Assembly: GCA_963813715.1 (NCBI GenBank)
Contig: CAWFAK010000005.1
Span: 64,001 to 128,000, forward strand
From: an uncultured Planctomycetaceae bacterium
GTDB taxonomy: Bacteria; Planctomycetota; Planctomycetia; Planctomycetales; Planctomycetaceae
Reading direction: 5' to 3'
Length of the DNA stretch: 64,000 bases
Part shown: positions 12,099-33,374 of the stretch, in pieces
How the letters are laid out: each line of letters opens with the position of its first letter
How positions within the stretch are numbered: position 1 is the first letter of the stretch
Position numbers and translations under genes: made by a program
The notes under the pieces: model-generated
Database searches by the model: none
What the model saw: only the letters and a program-made list of their open reading frames with translations
What the model was told of the DNA's origin: nothing

Positions 12099-13013
12099 GT
12101 GCGCGAAGGATCCGCGCTTTCGAATCGAGCGCGCTATTGCGCCTCGAGCGGCCGGCTCGCGCGAGCGTGGTGGCCGATTCTGATTTGCCTGCTCGCGTCG
12201 ATCTCGGGCTGCCGCACGCACTTGAGTCTGCGCGACAATACGCTGCGCACGGCGGGCACGCTGACCGATCTCAACTATCAGCAAGTGCTCGATAACCTGG
12301 CTCGGTTTCACGACAACCCGGCGGCCATGCCTTCGTTCGCCGTCGTGAACGCGGGCACGGTGAACGTCGCCGATCAGACGTCATTCAACGCCAACGCGAC
12401 GTACTCACCGACGCTCACATTCGGCCAGCAACTGGGTTCGGGACTGCCGATCCTCAGCTTGCTCTTCAATCCGAGTGGCCAGCGCAACGTCACCGAGAAC
12501 TGGTCGCTGGCGCCGGTGACCGACATCGACAACTTGCGGCGGATTCGTTGTGCCTATCAACTTCTCGTGGCCGGCGGCACGCTCGACTCCAACTGCATTC
12601 CGTGCCAGGACCTGATCAAACGCTTTTATCTGGGCGAACAAGACGACCTCGACTGCGTCATTCCTAAGGGCTGGTACGGCGTGGGCTGCAAGAAGGACGT
12701 GCCCGAGTGCGCTTGCTACGTGGGGCATTTCGGCAAGACCTACGTCTGGGTCAACGCCGATGGTCTCGACGGCCTGACCCGCTTCACAATGACAGTGATC
12801 GATCTGGCGACCGGAAAGCCTCACGCTCCCACCAAGACCGTCGTAAGCACTTATGGCCCGGACGGCAAACTGCAGAACACGCAGGTCACGACCACGGAGA
12901 TCGACAGCGGGGCACTCAAAGAGATGCGCAAAGAGGCGGGCCAAACCGACCGCGCTCGGCAGTATCTCAGTCCGCCGCTCGTGAATCCGGGCCTGTTCTT
13001 CGTGCCGCATTAG
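12099..13013 (+). CDS. Hypothetical lipoprotein
   Basis: Hydrophobic stretch ending LASISGC (lipobox-like); Cys-rich central region; coding-like composition. Confidence 0.65.
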   Translation: MREGSALSNRARYCASSGRLARAWWPILICLLASISGCRTHLSLRDNTLRTAGTLTDLNYQQVLDNLARFHDNPAAMPSFAVVNAGTVNVADQTSFNANATYSPTLTFGQQLGSGLPILSLLFNPSGQRNVTENWSLAPVTDIDNLRRIRCAYQLLVAGGTLDSNCIPCQDLIKRFYLGEQDDLDCVIPKGWYGVGCKKDVPECACYVGHFGKTYVWVNADGLDGLTRFTMTVIDLATGKPHAPTKTVVSTYGPDGKLQNTQVTTTEIDSGALKEMRKEAGQTDRARQYLSPPLVNPGLFFVPH

Positions 13014-13162
13014 AATTGCGCCGCCTCGGAATTTCGTCCGTCGGCACTCGACGAGCACGTCGGGCGGAAGCGCGGCCATTGCGGTCGACAGTCGTTATGC
13101 TGTTTGACGGCGGCATTTTGCGGAAGACTGCGCGCTTGACGAGCTACCGAGAGACACACGCT

Positions 13163-14739: not shown

Positions 14740-17700
14740 CTAGCCGTTGAGGATCTCGACGGCAGCCGAGAAGCCCGCCCACTGATTCTGGGAGTCGTCC
14801 GACGTGGACGTGGGGGGCGACGTCAGCGTGCCGGCGGTCTGCGGCTGAGAACCCGGCGAAGTGGGGCCGCTTGAGCCTACGGTCACCTGGATGGCGCCCG
14901 AAGCCGTGAGCGAATTTCCCAAGTCCGTGTAGCCGATCGCGATCGATGCCGAGCCGACGTAGCCCGTCAACGGCGTGAACGTGAGGTTCTTCAGGGCGTT
15001 GTTGAGGTTGGCCAGCGTACCCGTGATCGTCATCCCCGACGAGCTATTTGCGCCGGAGGTGAAGGTCAGCCCGGTCGTCGAACCGAGCTTGAGCTTGCCG
15101 TTGGTCGCGGAGAGCGTGACCTGTTCGATGCCGGTCCCCGCGTTGACGTCGGTGACGCTGATCAGGTCGTTGTTGGTCTTCGTGAACTGCACGGAGCCGT
15201 TCTCGGCGACCGACGCTGTTGACGGAGCCGTCAGCGTGGGCGCCAACGTAGCGATCGAAAGCGAGACGCTGGTCGAGGCGGACAAACCGTCCGGCGGATC
15301 CGAGACGGAAATCGCCAGCGTGTCAGCGCCCGAGTAGTTGGTGTTTGGCTTGTAGGTCAAGCCGTTGAGCGCGTTGTCGAGGTTGGTGACTGTCCCGGTC
15401 ACGGTGAAGGAGGCACTGCTGTTCTTGCCAGTCGTAAACGTCAAACCGCTCGTGCTGCCGAGCTTCAGCGTGCCGTTCGTCACGGAGAGCGTGAGCGATT
15501 CGGTCTTGATCGTGCCGGCGTTGCCGTCGGTAAACGAGATGGCGTTGCTGTTGGCGGCCGAGAAGACCAGCGTGCTGTTCTCGCTGAGCGAACCGGTCGA
15601 GGGAGCGGTGATTGTCGGGGCAGTGGCGGGTGAGATGGTGATCCCGACGTTGCTGGTGGCCGACTGGCCGTCAGTGGTGTCCAGCAGCGAAATCGCCAGC
15701 GTGTCGGATCCGCTGTACCCCGTCGTCGGCGTATAGGTCAGGCCGGTGAGCGCCTTGTTGAGATTGGCCAAGGTCGCGGCGATCGTGAAGGACGAGCTGC
15801 CGTTCTTGCCCGCCTTGAAGGTCAAACCGGGAGTCGAGCCGAGCGTCAGGATGCCGTTGGTGACCGAAAGGCTGAGCGTGCCGGTTGTCGAATTGGCGTC
15901 GGCGACCGTAATCGCATTGCTGTTGGTCGATGAGAATACGATCGTGACGTTTTCGCCCGTCGCGACGGACGTCGGCGCGGTAATCGTCGGCGGGCTGAGG
16001 GCGTTGATCGTCAGCGCCACGCTGGCCGAGGCTGACTGCTTGTTGACGCCATCGGCGACCGTGATCGAAAGCACATCGGTACCAACGTAGCCGGCGGTTG
16101 GCTTGTAGGTCAGGCCGGCCAGCGCCGCGTTGAGATTGGTCAGCGTCCCCGTCACAGCGATTGTGGCCGCGTTGTTCTTGCCGGTCGTATAGGTCAGCCC
16201 TGTCGTCGAGCCCAACGTCAGGATGCCGTGCGAGACCGACAGGGTCAGCGACTCGGTCTTGGCCGTGCCGGCGTTCACGTCGGTAAACGAGATGGGGTTG
16301 CCGTTGCCCGACGAGAACACGAGCGAACCATTCTCATTCAGCGAGCCCGTCGACGGTGCGGTGAGCACCGGGGGCTGGACGTTGACGGTGAGGGAGACGC
16401 TGGTTGCCGCCGAGTCGTTGTCGCCCGGATCGGCGATCGAGATCGCCAGCGAATCGGAGCCGATATAGGCGGTCGTCGGCGTGTAAGTCAAACCGTTGAG
16501 GGCGTTGTTCAAGCTGCTGACGGTGCCGCTGACGGTGAACGTCGCGGAGCCGTTGCTGCCCGTGGTGAAGGTCAGCCCGGCGGTTGACGCCAGGGTGAGC
16601 GTGCCGTGCGTCACTGCGAGGGTCAGCGAATCGGCACCGGAACCGGCGCCCGAGTCGGTGACAGAGACGGCGTTACTGTTGCCCGACGAGAAGACGAGTG
16701 AGCCGTCCTCAAAGAGCGAGCCGCTGGTCGGAGCGGTGATCGCCGGCGGGCTGAGTGCGACCACCGTCAGGCCGACGCTGGTCGAGGCCGACAGGGTGTC
16801 TGTGGTGTCGATGACGGAGATCAAAAGCGCATCCGAGCCGATGTAGGCCGGGTTCGGCTGATAGGTCAGTCCATTAAGGGCGTTGTCGAGATCGCTCGTT
16901 GCCCCCGTCACGGTGAAGGAAGAGGTGCCGTTGTTCCCGGAGGCAAACGTCAGACCCGAGGTGCCGGCCAACGTCAGCGTGCCGTGGGTTACGGAGAGCG
17001 TGAGCGAGTCGGGGCCGGCCGCCGAGTCCGTGATCGCAATGGCGTTGCCGTTGCCCGTCGAGAAGACGAGCGATCCATTTTCGCTCACCGAACCGGTGGC
17101 GGGCGCGGTCAAGGTTGGCGGCGCGTTGACCGTCAGCGACACGCTGGTCGACGCGCTCACGTTGGCGAGCGGATCGGAGAGCTGGACCAACAGCGAATCG
17201 GGGCCGGCGTAACCCGTGTTCGGGCTATAAGTCAGTCCGGCGACGGCGGCCTGCAGATCGCCGATCGTGCCGGAGACGGTCATCGAAGAGGAATCGTTGG
17301 CACCGGACGTGAAGGTCAGGTTGTTGGTGGAACCGAGCGCGAGCGTGCCCTGGTTGACCGACAGGGTCAGCGTATCGATGTTGGTGCCGGCGATCTGATC
17401 GGTGATGGTAATGGCGTTGCCGCCCGAGAAGACCAGCGAGGTGTTTTCGTTCGTCGACGCCGAGGCCGGGCCGGTCGCGGTCGGCGACCAGTTGATGTTC
17501 GTATTGGCCAGGTCGGGAACGAGCAGGTTGGCGATCGGCGTGCCTAAGCCGCTCACCAGGTCGTATCCAGGCGCCGCGTTGTAGGTGCCGTTGCCGCCAA
17601 CCGTGATATCGTGGAAGTCGGAGCTGGAAAGGTTGTACAACGTCGGCAAGGTCTGCGTGAGGCCGTTGAGACTTGGCTCACCGTTGAGGGCACGTCCCTG

Positions 17701-18831
17701 ATTGGCGATGGAGACGAGCGCGGCAGTCAACGGCGTGGCGAGGCTGGTGCCACCGACCTGGTACCATCCGCCCGAGTAGGTATCGAGGACGTAAACACCG
17801 GTGTCGGGATCCGCGTCCATCGAGATGTCTGGAACATTGCGATTGGTCGTGCTGGCGCCGTTAATACCGTTCAGCCCGTCCTGATAGGCCGGCAGCGGTT
17901 CGTACTGGCTGATGCCGCCGCCGGTGCCGTAACCGTTGTTGTTGTTCCAGACTGATTCGGAGATGTAAGTGCCGTCGGACTGGATCTGCAACGACGTGCC
18001 GCCGACAGCCACGACGTCCGGCGAGAAGGCGGGATAAATCGCAGGCGAATCCCAGTCGCCGGTTGCGGCCAGGAACGTCACGCCGCCCGTGCGCCCGGTG
18101 GGTGTGAGGTCGAAGGGGTCTTCCGACTGCTCGCCCTGGAATTCGTCCTCGCCCCAGCTCATTGACACGACCGAGACAGCCGGATTGGCGGCAGCGGTAG
18201 CCACGGCCTGGTCCATGTCGGGGTCGTTGTTGGTGTTCGACTCGTAGAGGATGATATTCGCCTGCGGGGCGATTGAGTGGGCCCACTCGACGTCGAGCGA
18301 TTCTTCGACGTCCCAGCCCTGTCCGTTGGTGGTCGGCAACGACGTGCCGCCGGTTTGATTGAGCACCTGGAAGGTCGGACCGCCCTGAACGTTGAACTGC
18401 GGCAGATTGAACGTGCTGCTGAAGTTCTGTGCGTCGGTGACGATGTTGGGGTCGTTGTACGCGTCGACGATGGCGATCGTCTGACCTGCGCCGGTGCCGC
18501 TGACGCCGTTAAACGAAATCTGGTTCACGCCGTAAGCAGTGGTCATTTGGGCCGGCGTGTAGGGGGCCGAGGCGACCGTCGTAGCCGGAGTGACGCCGTT
18601 TTTGCCGACGTTCGGCGCGGCAACCTGGCCGGCCACGATGATCGCCGGCTGATAGGCGGCGACGGCCGAGAGCATTTGCCGCGCTTCGAGGGCTTCGACG
18701 ACGGGCCCGCAGCAGACGGGCTGCTGCATGCGGTCAAGTTCTCGTTGATTTCGCCGGCGGGGCACCTTGCGGCCGCGGTAGGTATTTCCTCGGGTCTGCG
18801 AAAAAATCGACAGCCGGCGAGAGAACAGCAT
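14740..18831 (-). CDS. S53 (sedolisin-like) peptidase with planctomycete LExR motif and 7 beta-rich ~120-aa repeats (paralog 1)
   Basis: LEARQMLS; EESLD (Glu/Asp), AATGD, GGTSLATP (Ser), GYDLVSGLGTP; repeats PxxTAP..ENxxLxF..GLTYxP. Confidence 0.88.
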   Translation of the reverse strand: MLFSRRLSIFSQTRGNTYRGRKVPRRRNQRELDRMQQPVCCGPVVEALEARQMLSAVAAYQPAIIVAGQVAAPNVGKNGVTPATTVASAPYTPAQMTTAYGVNQISFNGVSGTGAGQTIAIVDAYNDPNIVTDAQNFSSTFNLPQFNVQGGPTFQVLNQTGGTSLPTTNGQGWDVEESLDVEWAHSIAPQANIILYESNTNNDPDMDQAVATAAANPAVSVVSMSWGEDEFQGEQSEDPFDLTPTGRTGGVTFLAATGDWDSPAIYPAFSPDVVAVGGTSLQIQSDGTYISESVWNNNNGYGTGGGISQYEPLPAYQDGLNGINGASTTNRNVPDISMDADPDTGVYVLDTYSGGWYQVGGTSLATPLTAALVSIANQGRALNGEPSLNGLTQTLPTLYNLSSSDFHDITVGGNGTYNAAPGYDLVSGLGTPIANLLVPDLANTNINWSPTATGPASASTNENTSLVFSGGNAITITDQIAGTNIDTLTLSVNQGTLALGSTNNLTFTSGANDSSSMTVSGTIGDLQAAVAGLTYSPNTGYAGPDSLLVQLSDPLANVSASTSVSLTVNAPPTLTAPATGSVSENGSLVFSTGNGNAIAITDSAAGPDSLTLSVTHGTLTLAGTSGLTFASGNNGTSSFTVTGATSDLDNALNGLTYQPNPAYIGSDALLISVIDTTDTLSASTSVGLTVVALSPPAITAPTSGSLFEDGSLVFSSGNSNAVSVTDSGAGSGADSLTLAVTHGTLTLASTAGLTFTTGSNGSATFTVSGTVSSLNNALNGLTYTPTTAYIGSDSLAISIADPGDNDSAATSVSLTVNVQPPVLTAPSTGSLNENGSLVFSSGNGNPISFTDVNAGTAKTESLTLSVSHGILTLGSTTGLTYTTGKNNAATIAVTGTLTNLNAALAGLTYKPTAGYVGTDVLSITVADGVNKQSASASVALTINALSPPTITAPTSVATGENVTIVFSSTNSNAITVADANSTTGTLSLSVTNGILTLGSTPGLTFKAGKNGSSSFTIAATLANLNKALTGLTYTPTTGYSGSDTLAISLLDTTDGQSATSNVGITISPATAPTITAPSTGSLSENSTLVFSAANSNAISFTDGNAGTIKTESLTLSVTNGTLKLGSTSGLTFTTGKNSSASFTVTGTVTNLDNALNGLTYKPNTNYSGADTLAISVSDPPDGLSASTSVSLSIATLAPTLTAPSTASVAENGSVQFTKTNNDLISVTDVNAGTGIEQVTLSATNGKLKLGSTTGLTFTSGANSSSGMTITGTLANLNNALKNLTFTPLTGYVGSASIAIGYTDLGNSLTASGAIQVTVGSSGPTSPGSQPQTAGTLTSPPTSTSDDSQNQWAGFSAAVEILNG

Positions 18832-18901
18832 GCTTCGGGCTCCAACGGCTAATTGGGCAATGGGTTGTGATTCGGAGGGATGCTGCAAGCGCGACTCGAA
18901 G

Positions 18902-18919
18902 GGTGCTGGCCCAAGCACC
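18902..18919 (-). promoter_or_regulatory. Conserved upstream hairpin motif, paralog 1
   Basis: Sense strand GGTGCT-TGGGCC-AGCACC, 71-88 nt upstream of the inferred ATG; similar motifs precede paralogs 2 and 3. Confidence 0.5.
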
Positions 18920-19218
18920 GGGCGCGTAGGAAGAACTCCTGACGCCATTCGAGAGTCGTGCCTCACAGTTTGCCGTCGCGAGGAGCCGGTGACAACGCGC
19001 CGGTCGCGAGATTTCTGTGAATTTTCTGAAGGGAAGCAGGCCGCTCTAAGAACCGAACGTCAATCGCGGCAGAAGTGGACAGACGAGCACGGTAAAACGC
19101 CAGAAACCATGCGCGCCCGGATGGTTTTCGACCGTCCCCGTAGCGCGCGCTGCCTTCCATCTGCGGCGCACCGGAGGTCACCGCGGAAATTCGTTCACGC
19201 GAACGACCGGCGCGGACG

Positions 19219-22200
19219 TTAGTTGATCAGGAACTCGAGGGCTTGGAGAAAGCCAGCCCATTGAGTCTGTGCGTCGATCGGTGTGGACGCGTCCCCGTCG
19301 GCGCTTCCGCCCGTCGTGGCGGGATTGGTCAGCGACAGGGTCGCCCCTCCGGTCACCGGCACAAACTGGCGGTCGCCTTGCACCGGAGCCGGCGTCACAA
19401 CGAGCGAGCGGGATGCCCGGCCGTTGCGGCTAACGGTGAGGGCGATGCTGCCTGTGCCTGTCAGGCCGTCACCCGCGTCCGTGTAGCTCAGTGAGATCGA
19501 GGCCGAACCGGTGAAATTTCGAGTCGGCGTGTAGGTGAGGCCGTTGAGGGCGTTGTTGAGATTGGTCAGCGTGCCGCTGATCGTCATCGAGGCAGAGCGG
19601 TTAGCCCCGGATGTGATCGTGATGCCGCTCGTCGATCCGAGACGCAGGGTGCCGTGCGTGGCTGTGAGCGTCAGCTTCTCGGTGCTGGTGCCCGCGCTGG
19701 CGTCGGTGATGGTGATCGACTTGGAGAAGGCGACGGAGCCGTTCTCGGCGACCGAGGCTGTGGCTGGAGCCTTGATCGTCGGCGCGACAGCCGCGTTCAC
19801 GGTGAGGGTCACGCTATCCGACGCGGACAAACCATCGCCCGGATCGGAAATCGAGATCGACAGCGAATCGGAGCCGGAATAATTGGTCGCCGGCTTGTAA
19901 ACCAGTCCATTGAGAGCCGCGTCGAGGTTGGCGATCGTTCCGGTCACCGTCACCGTCGACGAACCGTTCGCGCCGGCGGTGATCGTCAGGCCGGAGGTGG
20001 AAGCCAAGGTCAGCGTGCCGTGCGTGACGGCCAGGGTCAGCGAGTCGGTGCTGCCGGCGCTCGAGTCGGCGACTGAAATCGCGTTGCCGTTGGTCGACGA
20101 GAAGGTCAGAGAACTGTTCTCGTTGAGCGAACCGCTCGTGGGAGCGGTGATCGCGGGCGGGACTGGCGGCCGTAACGGTCAGGCCGATGCTGTCCGAATC
20201 CGAGAGGCTATCGCCCGGATCGGAAAGTGAAATCCCCAGCGTGTCCGAGCCGGAATAGCCGGCCGTCGGCTGATACGTGAGGCCGTTGAGGGCCGCATTG
20301 AGGCTGGACAAAGTGCCGGTCACGGTGAACGCCGCCGTGCCGTTGCCGCCCGTCGTAAACGTCAGCCCGGTCGTCGAGGCGAGCGTCAGAATTCCGTTCG
20401 AGACCGTGAGCGTGAGCGAATCACTGCCGCTGCCGGCGCTCGCATCCGTCAGCGTGATGGCGTTGCCCTTGCCCGTCGAGAAGACGAGCGAGGAATTCTC
20501 AGCGACGGTGGCCGTACTGGGAGCAGTGATCGTCGGCGGCGTGGGCGCGTTCACGCTCAGCGACACGCTGGCCGAGGCCGACAGGCTGTCGCCCGGATCG
20601 GTGACCGAAATCGCCAGCGAATCGGAGCCGGCATAACCCGCAGTCGGCTGATAAACGAGTCCGGCGAGCGCCGCATCGAGGCTTGAGACGGTGCCGGTCA
20701 CAGTGAACGAGGACGAGTCGTTGCTGCCAGATGTGAAGGTGAGTCCCGACGTGGTCGACAACGTCAACGTGCCATGCGAGACGGACAGCGTCAGCGAATC
20801 GGCGTTGGTGCCGGCGCTCGCGTCGGTGACGCTGATGGCGTTCCCGTTGGCCGACGAGAAGGTCAACGAGCCATTTTCGGCCAAGCTTGCCGACGCGGGG
20901 GCGCTGACGCTCGGCGGTTGCGTTGTGCCGTATCCCGCCAGGGCGGGGACGAGCAAATTGGCGATTGGCGTGCCCAGTCCGGTGACCAGATCGTAACCCG
21001 TCCCGGCCGAGTAGGTGCCGTTGCTGCCGGTTGTGATGTCGTGGAAGTCGGAACTGGGCAATTGGTAGAGCGTCGGCAGTGTTTGCGTCGCGCCGTTGAG
21101 GGATGAATCGCCCAAGAGGGAGCGTCCCTGGTTCGCGATGGCGATCAGGCCGCCCCACATCGGCGTCGCGAGGCTCGTCCCGCCGACCTGGAACCAGCCA
21201 CCGTCGTAGCTATCGAGGACGTAGACGCCGCTGTTGGGGTCGGCATCCATGGCGACGTCGGGCACGTTGCGATGCGTCGTGCTCGCACCGTTGACGCCGT
21301 TGAGCGAGCTTTGATAGCTGGGGATGGTCTCGTATTGGCTGATCCCGCCGCCCGTATCGGACCAGGCGCCCTCGGCGATGTATTGGCCGCTGCTGTTGAT
21401 ATCCAAAGTCGTGCCGCCGACGGCCACGACGTCGGGACTGAACGCCGGATATCCCGAAGGCGTGCCGTCATCGCCGGTGGCCGCCAGGAAAGTGACGCCC
21501 TGATGACCGTTGGGCGTGACGAAGTTGGAATCGAAGCCGGTCTCCGAGGAGCTTTCGCCGCCGTCCCAGCTCATCGACACGACCGAAACGCCGGCGTAAT
21601 CGGCCGCCGTGTCGACGGCCTGGAACAGGTTCGCGTCGGAGTTGGAAGAAGCCTCGAAGAGGATGATGTTCGCATCGGGGGCGATCGAGTGAGCCCACTC
21701 GACGTCGAGCGCTTCTTCAACGTCCCAGCCCCCCTTGGCCGCGTTGGCCGGCAGCGACGTGCCGCCCGTTTGATTCAGGACCTTGAGCGTGGGCTCGCTG
21801 CTGCCGTTGAACTGCGGCAGACCGAATTGGCTGCTGAAGCTATTGGCGTCGGAAATGATGTCCGGATCGTTGTACGCGTCGACGATGGCGATCGTCTGGC
21901 CGGCCCCGGTTCCTGCGACGCCGTTAAAGGAAATCTGGTTGATCCCGTAGGCCGCCTGCATCTGGGCCGGATCGATGGGGGCGGTGCCGGCCGTGACAGC
22001 CGGTTTGTTGGTCGCCGCGCCATGGGCCTCGAGAATAAAGGTCGGCGTGGCGACGGCGGTGAGGGCGGACGCGGCAGAGAGCATCTGGCGGCCTTCGAGC
22101 GTCTCGGCGGCCGGACCGCAGCAGACCGGCTGGCCGATGCGTGCCGCGTCGCGTCGACGTTTCAGCGGTCGACGAGAGCGGGAGGACGACGGGCGGACGA

Positions 22201-22237
22201 AGTTGGACAAAAACGGAAACCGAAGCGACAACAGCAT
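19219..22237 (-). CDS. S53 peptidase with LExR motif and 4 beta-rich repeats (paralog 2; apparent frameshift near 20160)
   Basis: LEGRQMLS, EEALD, AATGDDG, GGTSLATP, GYDLVTGLGTP. ORFs 19814..22363 and 19219..20007 join in repeat 3. Confidence 0.87.
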
Positions 22238-22304
22238 CCTACCGGCCTCCTGTGGCGGGTGAATTTGACCGTCAGGTGTTCGCCAAACACGAACTGAGTC
22301 AGAA

Positions 22305-22322
22305 GGTGCCGGCCCAGACACC
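22305..22322 (-). promoter_or_regulatory. Conserved upstream hairpin motif, paralog 2
   Basis: Sense strand GGTGTC-TGGGCC-GGCACC, 68-85 nt upstream of the ATG. Confidence 0.5.
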
Positions 22323-22330
22323 CGTCCTAA

Positions 22331-22353
22331 AGAAAATCGTCGGACGATTTTCT
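22331..22353. promoter_or_regulatory. Perfect 11-bp inverted repeat, candidate operator
   Basis: AGAAAATCGTC-G-GACGATTTTCT in the intergenic region upstream of paralog 2. Confidence 0.5.
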
Positions 22354-22436
22354 GCCCAGTCACACCAATAGTCTGCCCGTCGGCGAACTGGAGATCAACT
22401 TAGCCCAATTACGTCAAAAAGTGCTTCCAATCAACC

Positions 22437-25400
22437 TCAACCGGCCAGCACTTGCATTGCGGCCGCAAACCCCGCCAGCTGCGTTTCGGAGTCCGGAGGC
22501 AGGGTGCTGGTCGAGAGCGAGTTAGCCGAAGGGACGCTCGACGAGGCCGGTCCCGCGGGCGCGCCTGCCTGCAGGATCGTGCTCGACGAGACGGTGATGT
22601 TGGCCGTCACCGACTGGTTGGTTGCGAGGTCGGTGTAGGCCAGGGTGATCGTTGCCGCCTTCGCCTGCAGCGTATAGGTCATCCCGTTGAGGGCCAGATT
22701 CAGGTTGGCCAGCGTTCCCTCGATGGTCATCGACGCAGAACCATTGGCCCCGGAGATAAACGTAATCCCAGTCGTGCTGGCGAGTTGCAAGATGCCCGAA
22801 GTCGCCTTGATTGTCAGTTCTTCGGTGCTGCTGCCGGCGCTCCCGTCGGCAATGCTGATCGCATCTCCCTTGGCGGCGGAGAAAGTGGTCGTGCCGCCAA
22901 CTGTCGACCTGACGCTGGTCGGTGCGCTGATCGAAGGCGGGGCACTACCCGAAACGTTGATCGACACGCTGGCCGAGCCCGACAGGTGATCCGCCGAATC
23001 ATTGATCGCCACGGCGAGCGAGTCGGCACCCGTATAGTTGCTGGTCGGCTTGTAGGTCAGTCCGGCAAGCGCCGCGTTGAGGTTGGTGATTGACCCCGTG
23101 ACCGTGACCGTGGACGACCCGTTAGCGCCGGCCGTGATCGTCAGGCCCGAGATCGTCGACAAAGTCACCGTGCCATGCGAGACCGTCAACTGCAGCGAAT
23201 CCGAACCGCTTCCCGGCCCTGCATCCGCGACTGAAATCGGGTTGCTGTTGCCCGACGAGAAGACCAGCGAGCCGTTCTCAGGCACCGTAGCCGATCCCGG
23301 AGCTGAAACCGTCGGCGGGCTGTTGGCGTTGACCGTGATGGCCACGCTCTTCGAGGCCGACTCGCTGTCGCCGGGGTCCAAGAGAGAAATCGCCAGCGAA
23401 TCGGAGCCGGTGTAGCTGGTCGTCGGCGTATAGGTAAGGTTGTTGAGGGCCGCATTCAAACTGGTGACGGCGCCGGTCACGGTGAAGGACGCCGAGCCGT
23501 TGCTCCCGGCCGTAAACGTCAGGCCGCTGATCGTCGAGAGTGTGATCGTCCCGTGAGCGACCGACAGGGTCAGCGTATCGCTGCTGCTGCCGGCCGCCGA
23601 GTCGGCCACGCTGATCGCGCTCGAGGAGAAGATCAGCGAATTGTTGACGAGCACCGAGGCCGTCGCCGGCGCGGTAATCGTCGGCGCCGGCAAGGAGTTG
23701 ATGCTCAGCGAAACGTTCTTCGAGGCCGACTGGCCATCGCCCGGATCTTGGAGCGAAATCGCCAGCGTATCGCTGCCCGTGTAAGCGGCCGTCGGCTGGT
23801 AGGTAAGGCCGTTGAGGGCCGCGTTGAGGTTGCCGACCGTGCCACTCACTGTGAAGGTGGCCGAACCGTTGCTGCCGGACGTGAACGTCAGACCGGACGT
23901 GGTGGAAAGCGTCAGTTTGCCGTGCGCGACCGCCAGCGTGAGCGAGTCGCTGCCGGGATTGGCGTCGGCGAGCGAGATTGCGTTGCCGTTGCCGGTCGAG
24001 AAGGCCAGCGACCCGTTCTCCGTGAGCGAGGCCGAAACTGGCGCCGCGATCGTCGGGGCCAGCGCGCTGACTGTGATGGCCACGCTGCCAGAGCCAGTTT
24101 TGTTGTCGGTCGGGTCGCTGACGGAGAGGGCCAGCGTGTCGGAACCGGCGTAATTCGTCGTCGGCTGGTAGGTCGTTCCTACCAGGGCGGCGTTCAAGTT
24201 GGCTACGGTCCCCTTGACCGTGAAGGCGGCGGAGTCGTTCGAGCCCGAGCTGAAAACCAGTCCATTGGTGGTGCCCAAGGTCAGGGTGCCGTGGCTGACC
24301 GACAAACTCACCGAATCTGCGCCGAAGCCCAACCCGTCGTCGGTCAGCGAGATCAAGTTGCCGTTACCCGTCGAGAAGACGAGCGAGCCATTCTCCGCTA
24401 CGCTAGCCGTAGAAGGCGCCGTGAAGGTGGGGGCGATCGGTGCGACCGTGATCGAAACGCTGGAGGAGCCGGTCAGGCTTTCGCCTGGGTCGGTTAGCGA
24501 CACCAGCAGCGAGTCGGCGCCGCTGTAATACGTGGTCGGTTGATAGGTCAGACCGGAACTGTCCAGATCCGCGTTCAGGTTGGCGATGGTCCCGCTCACC
24601 GTGAACGAAGAGGAGCCGTTCGTCCCGGACGTGAACGTCAGGCCGGTGGTCGAGCCGAGCGTCAACGTTCCGTCGGAGACCGAGAGCGTGAGCGAATCGG
24701 CAGCACCGGCGGAGAACGGATCGGTCAGGGTGATCGCGTCGCTGTTGGCCGTCGAGAGTGTCGCCGACCCGTTTTCGGCCACGTTGAGCGTGGACGGGTT
24801 GCTCACGGCAGGCGCAGTCGAACCGTATCCCGCCAACGCGGGCACGAGCAGATTGGCGACGGGAGTGCCCAGCCCAGTGACCAGATCGTAACCCGGCGCA
24901 GCCGAGTAGGTGCCGTTGCTGCCGGTCGTGACGTCGTGGAAATCGGAACTCGGCAGGCTGTAGAGCATCGGCAGGGTTTGCGTGTACCCGTTGAGCGTCG
25001 ATTCGCCCGCGAGCGCCCGTCCCTGGTTGACGATGCCGATCATGCCGGCCCACAACGGAGAACTGAGGCTCGTGCCGCCCACCTGGAAGTAGCCGCCACC
25101 TTGCCCTTCGTTCCATGTGTCATAGACGTAGACGCCACTGTCGGGATCGGCGTCAGCCGAGACGTCGGGAACGTTACGGTTCGTGGTGCTCGAGCCGTTG
25201 ATGCCGTCGAGGTTGTCCTGGTAATAGGGCAGCGCTTCCTGCGTGCTGATGCCGCCGCCCGTGGCCCAACCATTGTTGTCGTTCCAAACCGATTCTGAGA
25301 TGTACGTGCCGCTGTTCTGAATCTGCAGGTTGGTGCCGCCCACGGAGACGACGTAGGGCGAGTACGCCGGATAGCCGGCGGGGCTGCCCGAGTCGCCGGC

Positions 25401-26183
25401 CGAGGCCAGGAAGGTGACCCCCTGGTGGCCGGTCGGCGTCTGGAAGTATTGGTCTTCGGAAGTCTCGCCGGAGAATTCGCCTTCGCCCCAGCTGTTGGAG
25501 ATCACGGAGACGCCGGGCCAACCGGCGGCGGTGACTTCGGCCTGGTCCATGTCCGGGTCGTTGGCCGTGGTCGACTCGAACAGGATGACGTTGGCCTCCG
25601 GCGCCATCGAGTGCACCCACTGCACGTCGAGTGATTCCTCGAGGTCCCAGTCGCCGACTGTCGTGTTGGTGTTCATCGGCAGCGTCGTGCCGCCGTTTTC
25701 GTTCAGCACCTGAAACGTCGGACCGCCGGAGTTGAATTGCGGCAAGCCGAATCGCGTGTTGAAGGTGGCCGTGTCGGAGACGATGTTCGGATCATTGTAG
25801 GCGTCGACGATGGCGATCGTCTGTCCGGCGCCGTTGCCGACAATTCCGTTGAAGGAAATCAGGTTCACGCCGTAGGCCGTCTGCACCTGCGACGGCGTGT
25901 AAGGCGCCGAGGCGTTGTCGGGCGAATTCGTGGGCTTCACGCTTCCAGGAGCCGCGACGCGGCCCAGGTTGATCAACGTCGGCACGGCGATGCCGGCGGC
26001 GGTGGCGGAAACGGCCGCCGAGAGCATTTGCCGCCCTTCGAGTTCCTCGACGGTCGGTCCGCAGCAAATCGGACCAGGAATGAATGCCGTGTCTCGTCGG
26101 CTGCGTCGACTCAGGTGCCGCTTGAACCGGACAGGCTTGGACCCGATTTTGCGCGAAATCGTGAGCCGCCTAGAAAACAACAT
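22437..26183 (-). CDS. S53 peptidase with LExR motif and 6 beta-rich repeats (paralog 3)
   Basis: LEGRQMLS, EESLD, ASAGDSG, GGTSLSSP, GYDLVTGLGTP. Confidence 0.88.
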   Translation of the reverse strand: MLFSRRLTISRKIGSKPVRFKRHLSRRSRRDTAFIPGPICCGPTVEELEGRQMLSAAVSATAAGIAVPTLINLGRVAAPGSVKPTNSPDNASAPYTPSQVQTAYGVNLISFNGIVGNGAGQTIAIVDAYNDPNIVSDTATFNTRFGLPQFNSGGPTFQVLNENGGTTLPMNTNTTVGDWDLEESLDVQWVHSMAPEANVILFESTTANDPDMDQAEVTAAGWPGVSVISNSWGEGEFSGETSEDQYFQTPTGHQGVTFLASAGDSGSPAGYPAYSPYVVSVGGTNLQIQNSGTYISESVWNDNNGWATGGGISTQEALPYYQDNLDGINGSSTTNRNVPDVSADADPDSGVYVYDTWNEGQGGGYFQVGGTSLSSPLWAGMIGIVNQGRALAGESTLNGYTQTLPMLYSLPSSDFHDVTTGSNGTYSAAPGYDLVTGLGTPVANLLVPALAGYGSTAPAVSNPSTLNVAENGSATLSTANSDAITLTDPFSAGAADSLTLSVSDGTLTLGSTTGLTFTSGTNGSSSFTVSGTIANLNADLDSSGLTYQPTTYYSGADSLLVSLTDPGESLTGSSSVSITVAPIAPTFTAPSTASVAENGSLVFSTGNGNLISLTDDGLGFGADSVSLSVSHGTLTLGTTNGLVFSSGSNDSAAFTVKGTVANLNAALVGTTYQPTTNYAGSDTLALSVSDPTDNKTGSGSVAITVSALAPTIAAPVSASLTENGSLAFSTGNGNAISLADANPGSDSLTLAVAHGKLTLSTTSGLTFTSGSNGSATFTVSGTVGNLNAALNGLTYQPTAAYTGSDTLAISLQDPGDGQSASKNVSLSINSLPAPTITAPATASVLVNNSLIFSSSAISVADSAAGSSSDTLTLSVAHGTITLSTISGLTFTAGSNGSASFTVTGAVTSLNAALNNLTYTPTTSYTGSDSLAISLLDPGDSESASKSVAITVNANSPPTVSAPGSATVPENGSLVFSSGNSNPISVADAGPGSGSDSLQLTVSHGTVTLSTISGLTITAGANGSSTVTVTGSITNLNAALAGLTYKPTSNYTGADSLAVAINDSADHLSGSASVSINVSGSAPPSISAPTSVRSTVGGTTTFSAAKGDAISIADGSAGSSTEELTIKATSGILQLASTTGITFISGANGSASMTIEGTLANLNLALNGMTYTLQAKAATITLAYTDLATNQSVTANITVSSSTILQAGAPAGPASSSVPSANSLSTSTLPPDSETQLAGFAAAMQVLAG

Positions 26184-26245
26184 CCCCAGACTCCTGCAAC
26201 AGGTGCGCGATTCGGGCGGAAAAGCGAGAGGAAACACGGCCCGAC

Positions 26246-26263
26246 GGTGCCGGCCCAGCGCCC
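26246..26263 (-). promoter_or_regulatory. Conserved upstream motif, paralog 3
   Basis: Sense strand GGGCGC-TGGGCC-GGCACC, 63-80 nt upstream of the ATG, flanked by GACGG/CCGTC. Confidence 0.45.
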
Positions 26264-26458
26264 GTCTGAAGAAATGAAAGGCGTCGCTAGTTTCGCCGAC
26301 GGCGAGGCAGAGATCAAGACTTAACGCGCGTCACTTATCCAAAATCCGCGCAGCACAATTAGTCCCCGTCAAAGTCCCCCGGCATCGGTCCCCACGGATG
26401 GTCTCGCGACCACGTCAGACACCCAAGCTGGGCGACTTCGGGCCGGGTGCTCGTGCGT

Positions 26459-29400
26459 TTAGACTTCGGAGTCGGGCGGGATGGAACTCGTTGCGGGGCC
26501 AGTTGTTGTGTTTGACGACGGCGAATTTCCCAGGGTCGTATTCCCGAAGAGGGTCACCGTGGTGGAGGACGTTCCCTGCCCTCCCGTCACCAGGTTGGTG
26601 TAGACCATCCCGATCGTCTGACTCTTTCCCGTGAGCGTATACGTCAGCGTGGCAAGGGCGGCGTTGAGGTTGGCCAGCGTTCCCTGGACGACCATCTGCA
26701 TCGAGTTGTTGGCACCTGACACAAAAGTCAGCCCGGTGGTCTTGCTCAGGTTCAGTGTGCCCCCCGAGTCCTTGATCAGGAGCTGTTGCACGCCAGTCCC
26801 GGCGCTCGGGTCCGTGATGCTGACCGCGTCGGTCCCGGTGAAGCTCACCGCGTCGGATCTCGTCAAGATGGCCGTGGGCGCCTTGATGGCCGGCGCCGTG
26901 CTGCCGGTGACACTTAACGTGACGTTGGCGGAAGCCGACTGCCCATCGGACGAATCCTTGATCGCCACCGACAGCGTGTCGGGACCTGTGTAGCCGGTCG
27001 ACGGCTGATAGACCAAGCCGTTCAAGGCCGCGTTGAGATTGACCAGCGAACCGGTGACAGTGATCGTGGTCGAGCCGTTCGCTCCCGAGGTGACGGTCAA
27101 CCCCGTGGTGCTTGCCAGCGTCACCGTGCCGTGGGAAACGGTGAGCGTCAGCAAGTCGGAACCGTTCCCGGGACCACTGTCGGCCACCGAGACGGCATTG
27201 TCGGTGGCCGGCTCGAAGACCAGCTCTCCGTTCTCACTGACCACGGCGCCGCTGGGAGCCGTGATCGTCGGGGGCAAGAACGCGGTAATCGTCAGGGCCA
27301 CACTGGTCGACGCCGACTCATTGTCTCCCGAATCGGAAATCCCAATCGAGATTGCAGCGGCACCCGAGTAACCGGACGTGGGACGATAGATCAGACCGTT
27401 GAGCGCGGCATTGAGGTTGGCAAGCGTGCCGGCCACGGTGAACGAGGCCGTGCCGTTGGTCCCGGCCGTAAAGGTGAGCCCTGTCGTGGAGGCCAAGGTC
27501 AACGTGCCGTGAGTGGCGGTGAGCGTTAGCGAGTCGGTGTTGGCGCCGATCCCCGTGTCGGCGACGGCAATCACATTGCCGTTCGTCGCGGAGAAGGTCA
27601 GCGATCCGTTTTCGGCGAGAGCGGCCGTGGCGGGCGCGGTGACGCTCGGCGGAGCCAGGCCGACAATGCTCAGCGACACGTTCGCGGAAGCGGACTTGTT
27701 ATCGCCCGTATCGGTGATCGTGATCGCCAGCGTGTCGGCGCCGGTGTAGCCCGATATCGGCTGGTAGGTCACGCCGTTGAGGGCCGCATCCAAGTTGGTG
27801 ACGGTTCCGCTCACGGTCATCGAGGCGGAGTCGTTGCTGCCGGCCGTGATCGTCAAGCCGGTCGTGCTGGCCAAGGTCAGCGTGCCGTGCTGCACCGAGA
27901 GCGCCAGCGAATCGGTGCCCGGATTGGCATCACTAACGGTAATGCCGTTGCCGTGGGAACTCGCGAAGGGCAGCGCGGTGTTCTCATTCAGCGAGGCGCT
28001 CGACGGAGCTGTGATCGTCGGAGCCAGAGCATTGACAGTCAGCGCGACCGACGCGGAACCCGACTTGCCGTCATTCGAGTCCACCACCGAGATCGACAGC
28101 GTGTCCGAACCGGCAAAACCGGTCGCCGGCTGATAAGTCAAACCGTTGATGGCGGCGTTGAAGTTCGCCACCGTCCCCTTCACGCTGAACGAAGAGGAGC
28201 CGTTGAAGCCGCTGACGAACACCAGTCCGTTGGTCGAACCAAGGGTCAAGATGCCGCTGGAGACGGACAGCATCTCCGTATCGGCGCTGGTGCCGGCGCC
28301 GTTGTCCGTCAGGGTGATCGGGTAGCTGCTGGTTGTCGAGAAGGTGAGCGTGCCGTTCTCGATGACGGCGGCCGTTATTGGCGCGCTGATCCCCGGAGCG
28401 GCGATCGCGTTGATGGTCAGCGCAACGCTGCTGGTGGCCGACAGGCCGTCCCCCGGATCGCGGAGCAACACGGTCAACGTGTCCCCACCGGTGTAACTGA
28501 AGTTGGGCTGGTAGCTCAGGCCATCGAGGGCGGCGTTGAGATTGCCGATCGGCCCGCTGACGGTGAACGAGTTGGAGCCGTTGGTGCCGCTGGTGAAAGT
28601 CAGGCCGGTTGTCGCTCCCAGCGTCAGGGTGCCGTTTGCCGCGGAGACGGTCATCGAATCGGAGCCGCTCGCGCCGAGGTCAGTCACGCTAATCTCGTTG
28701 CCGAAAGCCGAGGAGAAGGTGAGGGCCGTATTCACGGTCGTGCTGCCGGTCGACGGACCGCTCACGGTGGGTAGAGCCTTCACGCTGAGCGAGACGGAGG
28801 TCGCGGAGGACTTGCTGTCCGCCAGGTTGGTAATCGTCAGGGACAGCCCATCAGAGCCGAAGTAATTAGCCGTGGGCTGGTAGATCAGGCCGTCGAGCGC
28901 CATGTTGAGGTTGCTGAGCGAGCCGGTCACGGTGAACGAACTTGTGCCGTTCGTGCCCGACGTGAAGGTCAAGCCGAAGGTCGTGTGCAACGAGAGCGTG
29001 CCGTGCGTGACAGAGAGCGCCAGCGCATCGCCGCCAGCGTTGACGTCGCTGACGGAAATCGAGTTGCCGTTCCCCGTCGAGAAGACGAGCGACTGGTTGG
29101 CCCCGACGATGGCCGAACTCGGCGCAGAAACCAGCGGCGCCAAGGCGTTGACGATCAGCGAAACGGTCGTGCCGCCGGAGAGATTGTCCGCCTGGTCCTG
29201 GTCCGAGAGGCTCAGCGTGTCGGTGCCGTAGAATCCCGCGGTCGGCGTATATGTGAGGCTGGCCAGATCGGCGTTGAGGTTCGGCAGCAGGCCGGTCAGG
29301 ACGACGGTCGCGCTGTTGTTTCCCGTCACCGTCAGCCCGGTCGTCGTTGCCAGATCGAGCGTGCCGTCGCCGACCGACAGCGTCAGCTGCTCGTCCGAAC

Positions 29401-32400
29401 CGCTCACGTCGCCTACGGTGATCGCATTGCCGGCAGTAAAGGTCACACTGCCGTTTTCGGCGACGCTAATGCCGCCGGTGGGAGCCGTGATGGTGGGAGA
29501 CACCGGCACCACGGTGATTGACACGGTGGTCGTTCCCGTCAGACTGTTGCCGGTATCCGTGTCGGACAGCGACAGCACGTCGGGGCCGAGGTAGCCGGAC
29601 GTCGGCGTGTAGGTGAGGGTCGCCAGGTCACTGTTCAGGTTGGACAGCGAGCCGGTCAGCGTGAGCGAGGTGGAACCGTTGCCGACGACCGTCAGTCCGG
29701 TCATCGTCCCCAGAGTAAGGGTGCCGTTGGTCACCGAGAGGACCAGTTGTTCGGCCGTCCCACTGGGATCGACGACGCTGATCGCGTTGCCCCCGCTCAA
29801 CGTCAGGCTGCCGTTCTCGTTGACCGTCACGCCTGTGGGGACTTTGAACGTCGGCGCGACCGGGGTAATCGTGATCGAGACGCTGGCCGAGTTGATCAAC
29901 TCGTCGGTCGTGTCCTTCACGGAGAGCGACAGCGTGTCGGCGCCCAGGTAACCGGTGGTCGGCGTGTAGACGAGCGTGGGCAAGTCGTTATTGAAATTGG
30001 TCAGCGAACCGGTCAGGGTCAGCGTTTTCGTGCCGGCTCCGGACACCGTGAGGCCCGCCGTGGTGGTCAGGTTGAGCGTGCCATTGCTCACAGTGAGCAC
30101 CAGCTGCTCGGCCGTGCCGCTGGTGTCCGCAAGGCTGATCGCATTCTGCCCGTTGAAGACGAGAGTGCCGTTCTCGTTAACGCTGACGGCCAAGGGCGCG
30201 GTGATGGTCGGAGCGAACGCGGTGTTCGAGAACGGGTTGGAGGCGATACCGTCCGCGATGACGACAATCGTGAACGGGTCGTTGCCGATGGCGGCCGGCA
30301 GCACGACGTTGGCCGTTTCGGGCGTGCTGCCGGTGGCGACGCCGACCGAGCTCCAATCTGAGGTCGTCGCGTAGTAAACGGTCCCCGTGCTGGTGTCGAC
30401 CACCCGCACGATGGGATAGTTCTCCGCCATCTGGTTGTCGTCGCCGTAGGACGCCCCTTCGTCGAGTCCGTTGAGCTGCGTTCCCGTCAGCGTGTAGTCG
30501 TTGCCACTCTGCTGCGTGAAGCTGGTGATGGTCGGTTGCCAGGACGCCTGCGGACTCCCGTTGGGCGTGTAGACGGCGAGCTGATTGTTGTCGTCGGTCA
30601 GCAGCAGCTGTCCCGTCGGCAGGATGAGGAACGTATTGATAAAGCTGTTACTGTCACTGAGGAACGGATCGACGGTCGCCGAGGGCGTAATGTTCGTCCA
30701 GACGTCGGCCGTCGTGTTGAGGTCGTAGATATAGGTCGGCCCCGGGAATTGTTCCTCCCCGGTGTTGTCGATGTAGACCGCGGGCGAAAGCGCCAGCACG
30801 ACGTCCCCATTGGGCAGGATGGCGCCCGGCGCGTCGCCTGTCGTAAGCTGCGTCATGACGCCGTTGATCATGACAGAGGGCATCGTCGGGCCCTGCGTCC
30901 AGGAGTTCGTGCCTGGATTGTAGAGCGCGGTCGTGCCGTTGGTTCCAGTGAAGAGCGCGTCTCCATTGGCCAGCAGAAGCGCGGGGCCCAACTCATAACC
31001 CGTGCCCTCCGTCGAGAGCAGGGGAATCGTGCCGACCGTGCTGCTGGCGTCGGACCAGGTATTCGTGCTGGGGTTATACAGCTCGGCCTCGAACTTGTTG
31101 TCGGTGATGCTCGAGAAGAGGTCGTAGGTGAGGATGTCGCCGTTGGCCAGCTTCACCCACGCCTCCTCGTCGCTCTGGTCGTTGTGGACCTTGGTGCCGC
31201 CCGCGCTCCACGCATTCGTGGTTGGGTCGTAAATCTCGGTGCCGTTGTCTTCGATGTCGCCCACGAGGACGTTGCCATCCGGCAGGAGCTCGGTCGGTTC
31301 GTCCCCGACAATCGACTTCGGACTGCTCGCCACCATCGTCCACTTGCTGGTGACCGGATTGTAGATTTCGGCGGAATTCGAGAAATTCTCGTCGGTCGCA
31401 TACTCGCCGCCCACGACGAAGACTTCGCCGTTAGGCAGCACGGTGGACCCGAAATAAAGACGTCCGACATTCATCGAGCCCGCCACCGTCCAGGTCCCGT
31501 CGACGTAGCTGCCGGTGCTGTCGGGCGTGACCAGATACCAACTGGTAGAAGGGCCGTTGCCGCCGCCTCCATGCACGAAGAGTTGACCGTTGGGAAGCAA
31601 AAGACTCAACTGGCCCGCGTCCCCCTGCGGAACCGCGTTCGACATGGCGGTCCAGTTCTGCGACACCGGCGCGATGACGGTCAGCGGCACGGTCTTCGAC
31701 GCCGATTGGTTCGTCCCCGGATCCAGCAACGTCACCGACAGCGTATCGCCGCCCAAGTAATTGGTCGCCGGCTGAAAGGTCAGCCCGTTGAGGGCGGCGT
31801 CCAGGTTGGTGACCGTTCCGCTCACCGTGAACGAAGCCGAATTGTCGGTGCCGCTCGTGAAGGTGAGACCGTTGGTCGTCGCCAGGCTCAACGTCCCATG
31901 CAACACGGCAAGGGAGAGCGAGTCGGCATTGGTGCCGGCACTCGTGTCCGTGACATCGATGGCGTTGTTGTCGGCCGTGGAAAACGTCAGCAAGTTGTTT
32001 TCTTCGGTGCCGGTGGCCGTGGGGGCAGTGACTTTCGGCGGTTGCTGCGAGCCGTAGCCGGCCAAGTCCGGGACCAGCAAGTTGGCCTTGGGCGTGCCCA
32101 GGCCGGTCACCAGGTCGTAGCCGACGCCGGCGCTATAGGTGCCGTTGCTCCCGGTCGTCACGTCGTTGAAGTCGCTGCTCGGCAGTCCATACAGCATGGG
32201 CAACGTTTGCGTGGCCCCGTTGAGCGTTGTCTCGCCGGCGAGCACGCGGCCCTGGTCGGCGATGGCGATCATGCCGGCCCACAAGGGACAAGCCAGACTG
32301 GTGCCGCCGACGTCGATCCATCCGTTCGCGCCGTACGAGTATGAGTCGTAGACATAAACGCCGGTATTGGGGTCGGCGTCGGCGGACACGTCGGGCACGT

Positions 32401-33374
32401 TGCGATTGGTCTTGCTCGCTTGGTTGACCCCGTTGATGCCGCTCTGGAAGCTGGGCAGCGTCTCGTAGATGCTGGTGCCGCCGCCCGTATCCGACCAGGC
32501 GCTTTCGGAGACGTAGGCGCCGCTGGATTGAATTTGCAGATTCGTCCCGCCGACCGCGACAACGTCGGGAGAGAACGAGGGATAGCCGGCCGGCGTGCCG
32601 TCGTCGCCCGTGGAGGCCAGAATCGTGACGCCCTGATGGCCGGGCGGAGTGATGAAGTACGAGCTGTCGTCCTGCGTCTCGGTCGAGTACTCGCCGCCAC
32701 CCCAGCTGTTGGAGATGACGGACACTCCCGGGAAGCCCGCTGCTGTCGCCTCAGCCGTGTACAGGTCGCTTCCGTTAGGCGAATTCCCCTCGAAGAGAAT
32801 GATGTTGGCCTGCGGGGCCATCGAGTGCACCCACTCGACGTCGAGCGACTCTTCGACATCCCAGCCGAATTGTGGCGCGTTTCTGCGGCAGCGTGGTGCC
32901 CCCGTCCTCGTTGAGCACGCGGAACGTCGGTCCGCCCGCGACGTTGAACTGCTGCAGGCCGAATTGAGTGCTGAAGGTGGCTGCGTCGGAAATGATGTTC
33001 GGATCGTTGTAAGCGTCAACGATCGCGACCGTCTGTCCGGCTCCCGTTCCCACCACGCCGTCGAACGAGATCGCGTTGACGCCGTAGGCCGTCGCGACCT
33101 GCACGGGAGTGTAGGGACCCTGGCTACTGGGTTGCGAGGCCGGGGAGGCCATCGGTTTCACGTTGGGATTGATGACAAACGTCGGGACCGCGGTGCCGAG
33201 CACCGCTGGCGTGACGGCCGAGAGCATCTGCCGCCCTTCGAGTTCTTCGACGGTGTGTCCGCAGTAGGCGGGTCCGGGAAAGAAAGCCGAGTCGCGTCGT
33301 CCGCGCTGTCGCGCACGCTTGCGTGGTTTAACAGGCGCGATTTTGCGCAGACTCAGACGCTTCGGAAAAAACAT
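26459..33374 (-). CDS. S53 peptidase with LExR motif, Kelch-like propeller and 11 beta-rich repeats (paralog 4; apparent frameshift near 32881)
   Basis: LEGRQMLS, EESLD, ASTGDDG, GGTSLACP; seven LxxG-type blade motifs at about 30230-31660. ORFs 32775..33374 and 26459..33019 join. Confidence 0.87.

Follow-up and report, generated by a model that had tools for sequence, protein, structure and literature searches.

A tandem array of four S53-type peptidases on repeat stalks in an uncultured Planctomycetaceae bacterium

The window analyzed here is a 64,000-nucleotide stretch of contig CAWFAK010000005.1 (assembly GCA_963813715.1, positions 64,001 to 128,000) from an uncultured Planctomycetaceae bacterium. 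It contains a tandem array of four co-oriented minus-strand genes, g4, g3, g2, and g1, running from window position 33374 to 14740, each of which codes for an N-terminal leader of the LExR type, a peptidase catalytic domain of family S53 (the head), and a stalk of repeats. The first of them, g4 (26459..33374), codes for 2304 amino acids (aa) when read through a frame break, has a Kelch module between its first repeat and the other 10, and ends in PPDSEV. The remaining three end in a common helix: g3 (22437..26183; 1248 aa, with a 9-repeat allele of 1609 aa known) has six repeats, g2 (19219..22237; 1005 aa read through) has four, and g1 (14740..18831; 1363 aa) has seven. The lengths of g2 and g4 are those of translations with one X at the break in each.

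The catalytic residues of the heads are intact: ExxxD, GD, GGTS, and GYDLVxGLGTP are present in all four, and the Glu-Asp-Ser triad aligns to that of kumamolisin. They lie at 17506..18564 in g1 (E176, D180, S363), 20936..21979 in g2 (E174, D178, S355), 24831..25904 in g3 (E182, D186, S372), and 32060..33116 in g4 (E174, D178, S359), and the oxyanion-hole Asp in A-x-GD is D259, D256, D264, and D257, respectively. Both Asp residues of the C-terminal motifs (FHDIT ... GYDxxxGLGxP; Asp408 and Asp424 in g1), which we take to be the calcium ligands, are kept in the four heads. The g1 protein matches kumamolisin-As with an E value of 3.6e-33, and its head, the only one of the four that was modelled, superposes on pro-kumamolisin with a Z score of 45.9 (rmsd 2.7, 346 residues aligned); the top 13 rows of the fold search are kumamolisin or sedolisin (Z 43 to 46), with S8 enzymes at 29 or below. 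A preliminary description of this DNA, made from the letters alone, had proposed four co-oriented S53 paralogs with an intact catalytic set, and this is borne out for every one of them, although "giant" was too strong a word for proteins of 1000 to 2300 aa. The heads are mutually 66 to 72% identical, and the loops lining the cleft, read by eye, are constant within ortholog groups and divergent between them. S53 enzymes are described as acid-active and enriched among archaeal acidophiles (PMC6411800).

The N-terminal region differs from that of a typical S53 enzyme. All four proteins begin with an Arg-rich, non-hydrophobic leader (10 to 12 Arg plus Lys within the first 45 residues) terminating in E-x-L-E-x-R-Q-M-L-S at residues 43 to 55, and we found no hydrophobic signal peptide in them, the maximum 12-residue hydropathy being 0.87 to 1.33. 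The motif lies at 18667..18696 in g1 (residues 46 to 55, with the Arg-rich stretch N-terminal of it) and at 33219..33248 in g4 (residues 43 to 52). PMC8567305 regards the LExR motif as a putative signal by which planctomycete surface proteins are exported. The catalytic domain starts as early as residue 87 to 94, and the activation domain Pro-kuma_activ (PF09286) has no match across the source genome, which is 83% complete. What follows the leader is a short linker with a conserved Pro 7 to 13 residues past the motif (40 of 42 aligned homologs), then Thr/Ser/Ala and a hydrophobic run. In g1 (residues 62 to 67, 18631..18648) the family profile aligns this Pro to Pro170 in the Pro170-His171-Phe172 segment of pro-kumamolisin, whose cleavage site, near the catalytic Ser, is His171-Phe172 (PMC2635056); in g4 the corresponding P-x-F segment (residues 64 to 69, 33168..33185) is a candidate for self-cleavage. 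The AlphaFold model of g1 makes the linker a strand (pLDDT about 71) flanked by disordered stretches, and the model aligns over 346 residues with the pro-form versus 324 to 327 with mature kumamolisin; as the structural alignment gave ranges only, the linker may, rather than must, dock in the cleft. On the evidence of profiles and the model, the folded S53 prodomain has been lost and what appears to be its cleavage linker retained. This trait is not confined to the array: a survey of 80 genome loci yielded many S53 loci from Clostridium, Burkholderia, Acidobacteriota, and archaea with an ordinary signal peptide and a short linker, so the prodomain-less head is widespread. Many Planctomycetota S53 loci in that survey have an LExR leader, and the repeat of the array occurs in only 5 of the 80.

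The region after the head is 28 to 34% Thr plus Ser and is composed of repeats of 119 to 127 aa, at 14860..17484 in g1, 19420..20914 in g2, 22572..24812 in g3, and 31667..32038 (repeat 1) and 26531..30211 (repeats 2 to 11) in g4. A repeat profile returned the 7, 4, 6, and 11 copies that had been counted before. In g4 they had been thought to stand contiguously behind the head, which is wrong, since a Kelch beta-propeller module of about 480 aa (30212..31660) separates repeats 1 and 2. Big_9 scores above its cut-off in all four genes and NF012211 in g4 only, the repeat was modelled with a pLDDT of 88.6 (two-repeat model, pTM 0.69), and all 10 best Atlas matches with an assigned family are cadherin-like. 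Fold comparison gave human B4GALNT1 (9h6j) as the best match (Z 13.5, rmsd 1.9, 106 residues aligned), the rest having a Z of 9.1 or below; no close bacterial structure was among the matches listed, which excludes none. The profile and structure checks that the preliminary description had recommended for the repeat thus lead to a Big_9/cadherin-like, Ig-like beta-sandwich. As for the Kelch module, its C-terminal part together with one repeat gave Atlas matches of at most 0.80, to be taken as leads only. We rejected a radical copper oxidase as its identity, as it has no Cys and 2 His and scores 17.2 bits with NF052501, against the 800 required. Enzymes of that type, such as galactose oxidase and GlxA, have a Cys-Tyr cofactor and His ligands to copper.

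The combination of head and stalk is common among homologs: among the best 120 of 4176, taken at 749 to 2386 aa only, 113 have 1 to 15 repeats after the head, and the patterns of the leader and the tail are found in 90 and 82, respectively. Length alleles were seen in g3, where forms of 1248 aa (six repeats) and 1609 aa (nine repeats) differ by one 361-residue block, located at about 24430-24760 of the window; none was seen for g1, g2, or g4. A contig from run X3 reads across the junction gap-free, and run X11 has a loose end that agrees with the extra g3 block of the related genome G002 except for one mismatch. We also observed other arrangements of these domains. In two related genomes, G005 (L019) and G004 (L020), what appears to be one giant gene, its frame broken in each assembly, codes for two S53 heads, a Kelch module, a Vgb-like propeller, and more than 25 repeats and ends in the tail. 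Seven homologs (P0014, P0015, P0021, P0025, P0027, P0096, and P0108) have two S53 domains without this repeat, some with YDG or Big_3. A head-less gene in the source genome, G000 (C5:1403308-1406082; L139:13308-16082, minus strand) codes for an LExR leader, six mutually similar repeats, and the tail, and is followed by HlyD-like and AcrB-like efflux genes. Last, three related lipoprotein-like proteins with no assigned family (G000 C17:1170000-1174466, C7:898449-902459, and C5:668109-669617) have one stalk repeat each and lack an LExR leader.

The C-terminal ends of g1, g2, and g3 consist of a disordered Ser/Thr/Pro/Asp linker and then a predicted helix, W-x-G-x-x-x-A-x-E-x-L (14743..14796, 19222..19275, and 22440..22493, respectively), in which G and A are invariant and W, A, and L nearly so. 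It is net negative and modestly amphipathic, with a hydrophobic moment of 0.216 against a shuffled maximum of 0.208. A profile of this tail had 22 matches among 1.84 billion representatives, all of which end 0 to 2 residues from the C terminus; for 9 of the top 10 matches in the source genome the distance to the stop is 0 to 1 residues, which holds by construction for several. The tail is present in 11 of 12 genomes of the genus, in one of 29 other relatives (E value of 0.015), and, as a borderline match, in one of 300 further genomes of the phylum.

The helix is not specific to peptidases. We fetched 20 tail matches chosen for lying outside known S53 loci, of which 19 gave a tail match and none had an S53 head. 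An LExR leader was in frame in 12 and in an upstream frame in one; three were cut by a contig end, two had no in-frame leader, and one was a small PilZ-like protein. Among the cargoes are malectin, a PqaA-like hydrolase, propellers of the Kelch and other types, and proteins that consist of the stalk only; some of them lack the repeat of the array. The PilZ-like protein (G000 C17:801243-801875; L172:1357-1989, plus strand), which carries a W-x-G-x-x-A-A helix near its C terminus, occurs in 11 of the 12 genomes of the genus (orthologs at L167-L177), and its Pfam E value of 0.05 to 0.08 lies below the cut-off. The idea that the tail is a form of a planctomycete-wide terminal D-x-x-F motif was not supported: 4 of 34 LExR-S53 frames have it, where shuffling gave 1.4 on average and at most 5. 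Two further LExR-S53 genes in G000 (C5:855546-858491 and C7:824673-827449), both frame-broken, end in the tail or a variant; the one on C7 has an insertion within the catalytic domain and a PKD domain.

The assembly of the source genome has one extra base each in g2 (near 20159) and g4 (near 32880), and both frameshifts are most likely assembly errors. We compared 4 of 24 listed sequencing runs with the array. The base at 32880 is absent from the three runs covering it, while the one at 20159 is left out in one of three in the listed row, with nine further indel rows undisplayed, so the break in g2 is less certain from the runs alone. Among listed cluster members, 7 of 15 in the g2 cluster are 1005 to 1006 aa long and 9 of 15 in the g4 cluster are 2304 aa, and three members checked per cluster are 99 to 100% identical to the read-through. 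Contigs of run X1 bridge the g1/g2, g2/g3, and g3/g4 junctions. Comparison of the array DNA with itself gave a best match of 83% over 60 nucleotides, the others being at 72% or below, and the 28 repeats compared pairwise have a median amino acid identity of 49% and a maximum of 73%. The concern, raised in advance, that the array could be an artefact of assembly can be set aside: it is real, with bridged junctions, divergent repeats, and syntenic counterparts in three other genomes.

The named relatives are uncultured Planctomycetaceae, and the DNA turned up in runs from soil and rhizosphere that belong to 19 studies. The S53 head is present in all 11 other genomes of the genus (3 to 17 matches, fragments included). 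Of 29 genomes from outside the genus, 4 have it, one of them with 10 matches, so the head has expanded elsewhere as well. The repeat subtype has 4 to 88 matches per genus genome and 0 to 2 in the 29 others. A search for synteny, another suggestion of the preliminary description, covered 40 regions fetched around the stronger matches and detected arrays in G002, G003, and G009. Gene order, with repeat numbers in parentheses, is g4(11)-g3(9)-g2(4)-g1(7) in G002 and g4(11)-g2(4)-g1(7), lacking g3, in G003; G009 has the same three-gene order as G003, where g4 is truncated by the start of the G009 contig partway through the Kelch module. Upstream dehydrogenase, kinase, and thiolase genes are common to our array and those of G002 and G003. 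Repeat numbers are kept for g1, g2, and g4 in G002 and G003, for g1 and g2 in G009, and for g2 in G007. In a tree of 48 heads, each gene falls with its own orthologs, so the duplications predate these species. The heads are under strong purifying selection (dN/dS of 0.032 to 0.088), and the stalks have values of 0.14 to 0.18 against G003. In g4, the Kelch module has a dN/dS of 0.12 to 0.18 and the last 600 codons one of 0.375 against G002. Its head and Kelch module (30212-33374) differ from those of G002 (L013) by a dS of 0.63 to 0.72, against 0.069 in the last 600 codons, a contrast that suggests a swapped N-terminal half.

Putting these features together, we give a probability of roughly one half to the reading that the four proteins are exported, self-activating endopeptidases of the acid type, built on a modular surface-protein platform used throughout the genus and docked by their C-terminal helix. 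The Arg-rich LExR leader would route the protein out of the cell; the remaining linker would block the cleft until it is cut in cis at acid pH, and the leader would be shed. The architecture then gives a rod of 4 to 11 Ig/cadherin-like domains, each estimated at 4 to 5 nm, with the head as its N-terminal tip, and this polarity, with an N-terminal head, an Ig-like stalk, and a conserved C-terminal tag, is the layout of stalked surface proteins. The amphipathic helix may serve as a docking tag for an envelope or export partner holding the base of the rod, in which case the tail-less g4 might be released or held by other means. The paralogs would have been kept for their different substrate-cleft loops and reach, with recombination exchanging stalk lengths and heads. 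Acid activity, export, and anchoring are predictions from sequence, and on the same footing the likely role of the system would be the breakdown of soil protein near the cell for nitrogen and carbon.

Several observations weigh against this reading. The four leaders fall short of the curated models: PF07595 (Planc_extracel) gives 11.9 to 14.4 bits for g1 to g3 and no match for g4 (cut-off 25.5), and NF012209 has no match in g1 to g4, with a fifth paralog reaching 22.2 bits (cut-off 17). We identified no transmembrane segment or known anchor in the four proteins. The tail is missing from g4 in this genome, in G002, and in all nine full-length members of its cluster, though the g4 orthologs of G003 and G009 do carry it; as the tail-less g4 head is still under selection, the tail appears to be inessential for function. 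The restriction of the tail to the genus is a biased measure, since the profile was built from this genus. The helix motif was found by pattern in the last 45 residues of 71 of 76 homologs of the PilZ-like protein, usually with a few residues beyond it, and an LExR motif or hydrophobic N terminus in none of the 76; with a carrier devoid of a signal peptide, a tag read in the cytoplasm fits as well as an outer anchor. Finally, the stalk is common to many non-protease and head-less proteins of the genus, and the existence of head-less stalk proteins implies that the stalk may itself bind something.

These points bear directly on the proposal of the preliminary description that the array displays its heads at graded distances from the cell, an idea that holds only if the stalks are rigid and anchored at the C terminus. 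The polarity of the proteins and the conserved repeat numbers are compatible with it, while the lack of a tail in the longest member, the ortholog-specific cleft loops, and the head-less stalks argue against a pure distance ladder. A possible alternative, which we take seriously without favoring it, is that the array is about specificity and dose instead of reach, with old tandem duplicates retained for their cleavage preferences and stalk lengths being a tolerated by-product of recombination. The divergence of the heads and their loops fits this view, as do the 6- and 9-repeat alleles of g3, the arrays of G003 and G009 that do without g3, and the dS contrast within g4, which is as expected after a head swap. 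It accounts less well for stalks under purifying selection and for repeat numbers kept among G002, G003, G009, and G007 at a dS above 1, although the latter may be plain inheritance because these genomes are kin.

It is rather doubtful that the enzymes are simply released. In that scenario the helix would be read inside the cell as a signal for export or chaperone docking, and the Thr/Ser-rich stalk and Kelch module would adhere to substrate, matrix, or particles of soil, with avidity rather than distance from the cell being set by the length of the stalk. An acidic, amphipathic helix that is not membrane-spanning and is shared with a PilZ-like protein would suit such a signal, and the selection on tail-less g4 and the occurrence of stalk-only proteins would suit release. 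An obligatory export signal should, however, persist in a gene under selection such as g4, and the tail is missing from many LExR proteins of the genome; moreover, a N-terminal head and a stalk beside a C-terminal tag have the polarity of C-anchored fibrillar proteins as described in PMC10952558.

A more speculative idea, to which we attach a low probability, extends docking by the helix into a two-signal display platform. The LExR leader would be shed by the cargo's own protease, the shared genus-specific helix would be read by an export or anchoring partner, and the cytoplasmic PilZ-like carrier of the helix would act as a second-messenger-controlled competitor or gate that turns the surface arsenal as a whole on or off.

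We consider it improbable that the proteins have an inverted, LapA-like polarity, exiting C terminus first through a TolC/HlyD-type channel, being held by the N-terminal leader, and being released by acid self-cleavage at the linker. Genes of the TolC family are numerous in the genome, and a GAF, HlyD, and M50-HlyD cluster (G000 C16:408000-414000; L140), which lies about 6 kb from an LExR beta-helix gene, is a candidate export machinery for LExR proteins. Giant LEPRxLL proteins of Chlorobium encoded beside tolC have been proposed to exit C terminus first (bioRxiv 10.64898/2026.03.19.712371). Nevertheless, none of 28 HlyD-family matches scores above the type I secretion cut-off of TIGR01843, no secretion genes were found adjoining the array, the stalk could not act as a spacer for a head lying beside the anchor, and tail-less g4 would be left without an export signal.

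Least credible of all, and largely refuted, is a misassembled or decaying set of pseudogenes, for which the two frameshifts, the base at 20159 left out in one of three covering runs, and the tail gone from g4 could be cited, against intact 1005- and 2304-aa proteins at 99 to 100% identity, junctions bridged by independent contigs, syntenic arrays in three further genomes, repeats at most 73% identical, and a head dN/dS below 0.1.

A Tat-signal multicopper oxidase with a Met/Lys-rich insert is coded at 12707-14722 on the plus strand, convergent with g1; only 31 of its residues match in the G002 region, and it looks like a variable neighbor. On the same strand, a 304-aa lipoprotein-like open reading frame (12099-13013) has no Pfam or NCBIfam match. 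On the other side (34940-36794, minus strand), overlapping FHA and GAF/histidine-kinase frames probably belong to a single gene that an assembly indel has broken up. The four upstream regions have in common only a GGAG resembling a ribosome-binding site and loose patches, a promoter and terminator scan performed at chance (1 versus 2.0 expected and 15 versus 14.0), and Rfam gave no match in 12000-36000. We discarded RNA libraries X11 and X13 as a source on transcription or operon structure: all 30 bins are covered, but by flat-depth contigs that include intergenic DNA. Elsewhere, G000 has three adjacent TolC-family outer-membrane efflux genes (C7:429695-434980; L132). An M50 gene on C9 was dropped as an export candidate for want of a link to HlyD, and the genome also has secretins, with no traceable tie to the array proteins.

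The export and holding of large LExR-leader proteins in planctomycetes are described as putative so far (PMC8567305). The most interesting part of the system is the shared terminal helix. Strictly terminal in the profile matches, and common to unrelated cargoes and a small PilZ-like protein, it could serve as bait for a receptor, with g4 as a natural tail-less control. If folding without a prodomain is true, these would be simple acid S53 proteases to express and a test of the need for the prodomain. The array also suggests that a soil planctomycete genus, recorded in sequencing runs of numerous studies, degrades protein in acid microsites. We found no description of the architecture or the tail in the open-access literature that our search covered, subscription journals and supplements being outside it. 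The main text of a giant-gene survey (10.1101/2023.11.21.568195) contains none of the terms LEPR, S53, and cadherin, and the parts of the LExR/LEPR-XLL literature covered mention neither an S53 cargo nor the C-terminal helix nor a stalk of this subtype.

When compared with known systems, the heads resemble kumamolisin and sedolisin (MEROPS S53; PDB 1T1E, 1GT9, and 1GA1) in fold (Z 43 to 46), triad, oxyanion Asp, calcium-site motifs, and a linker aligned with the cleavage site, and differ from them in lacking a folded prodomain, in having an LExR leader instead of a signal peptide, and in a stalk of 500 to 1850 residues. The N terminus recalls the LExR or LEPR-XLL proteins (PF07595 and NF012209), with which the array proteins share an Arg-rich start, the E-x-L-E-x-R-x-M-L-S motif, and a large multidomain build, although the four leaders remain below both curated cut-offs. 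Fibrillar adhesins and Periscope proteins, such as CshA, SasG, Rib, and Sgo_0707, have the same order of N-terminal tip, repeat stalk, and C-terminal tag in the account given by PMC10952558, and their repeat number varies by recombination as described in PMC8201768, which is matched here by the g3 alleles. In contrast to them, the tip of the array proteins is an enzyme, the repeats are divergent where those of Periscope proteins are highly similar, length alleles are known for one of the four genes, and the anchor is neither LPxTG nor any other listed type. The streptococcal cell-envelope proteases ScpA and SpyCEP are S8 His-triad enzymes, sortase-anchored in Gram-positive bacteria and displayed on the surface by a stalk. 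Structural matches liken the array proteins to these subtilases, as in both a subtilase-clan head is followed by beta-sandwich domains; the array heads, however, are S53. Taken together, the array is real and probably codes for stalked secreted proteases whose component parts are of known kinds.

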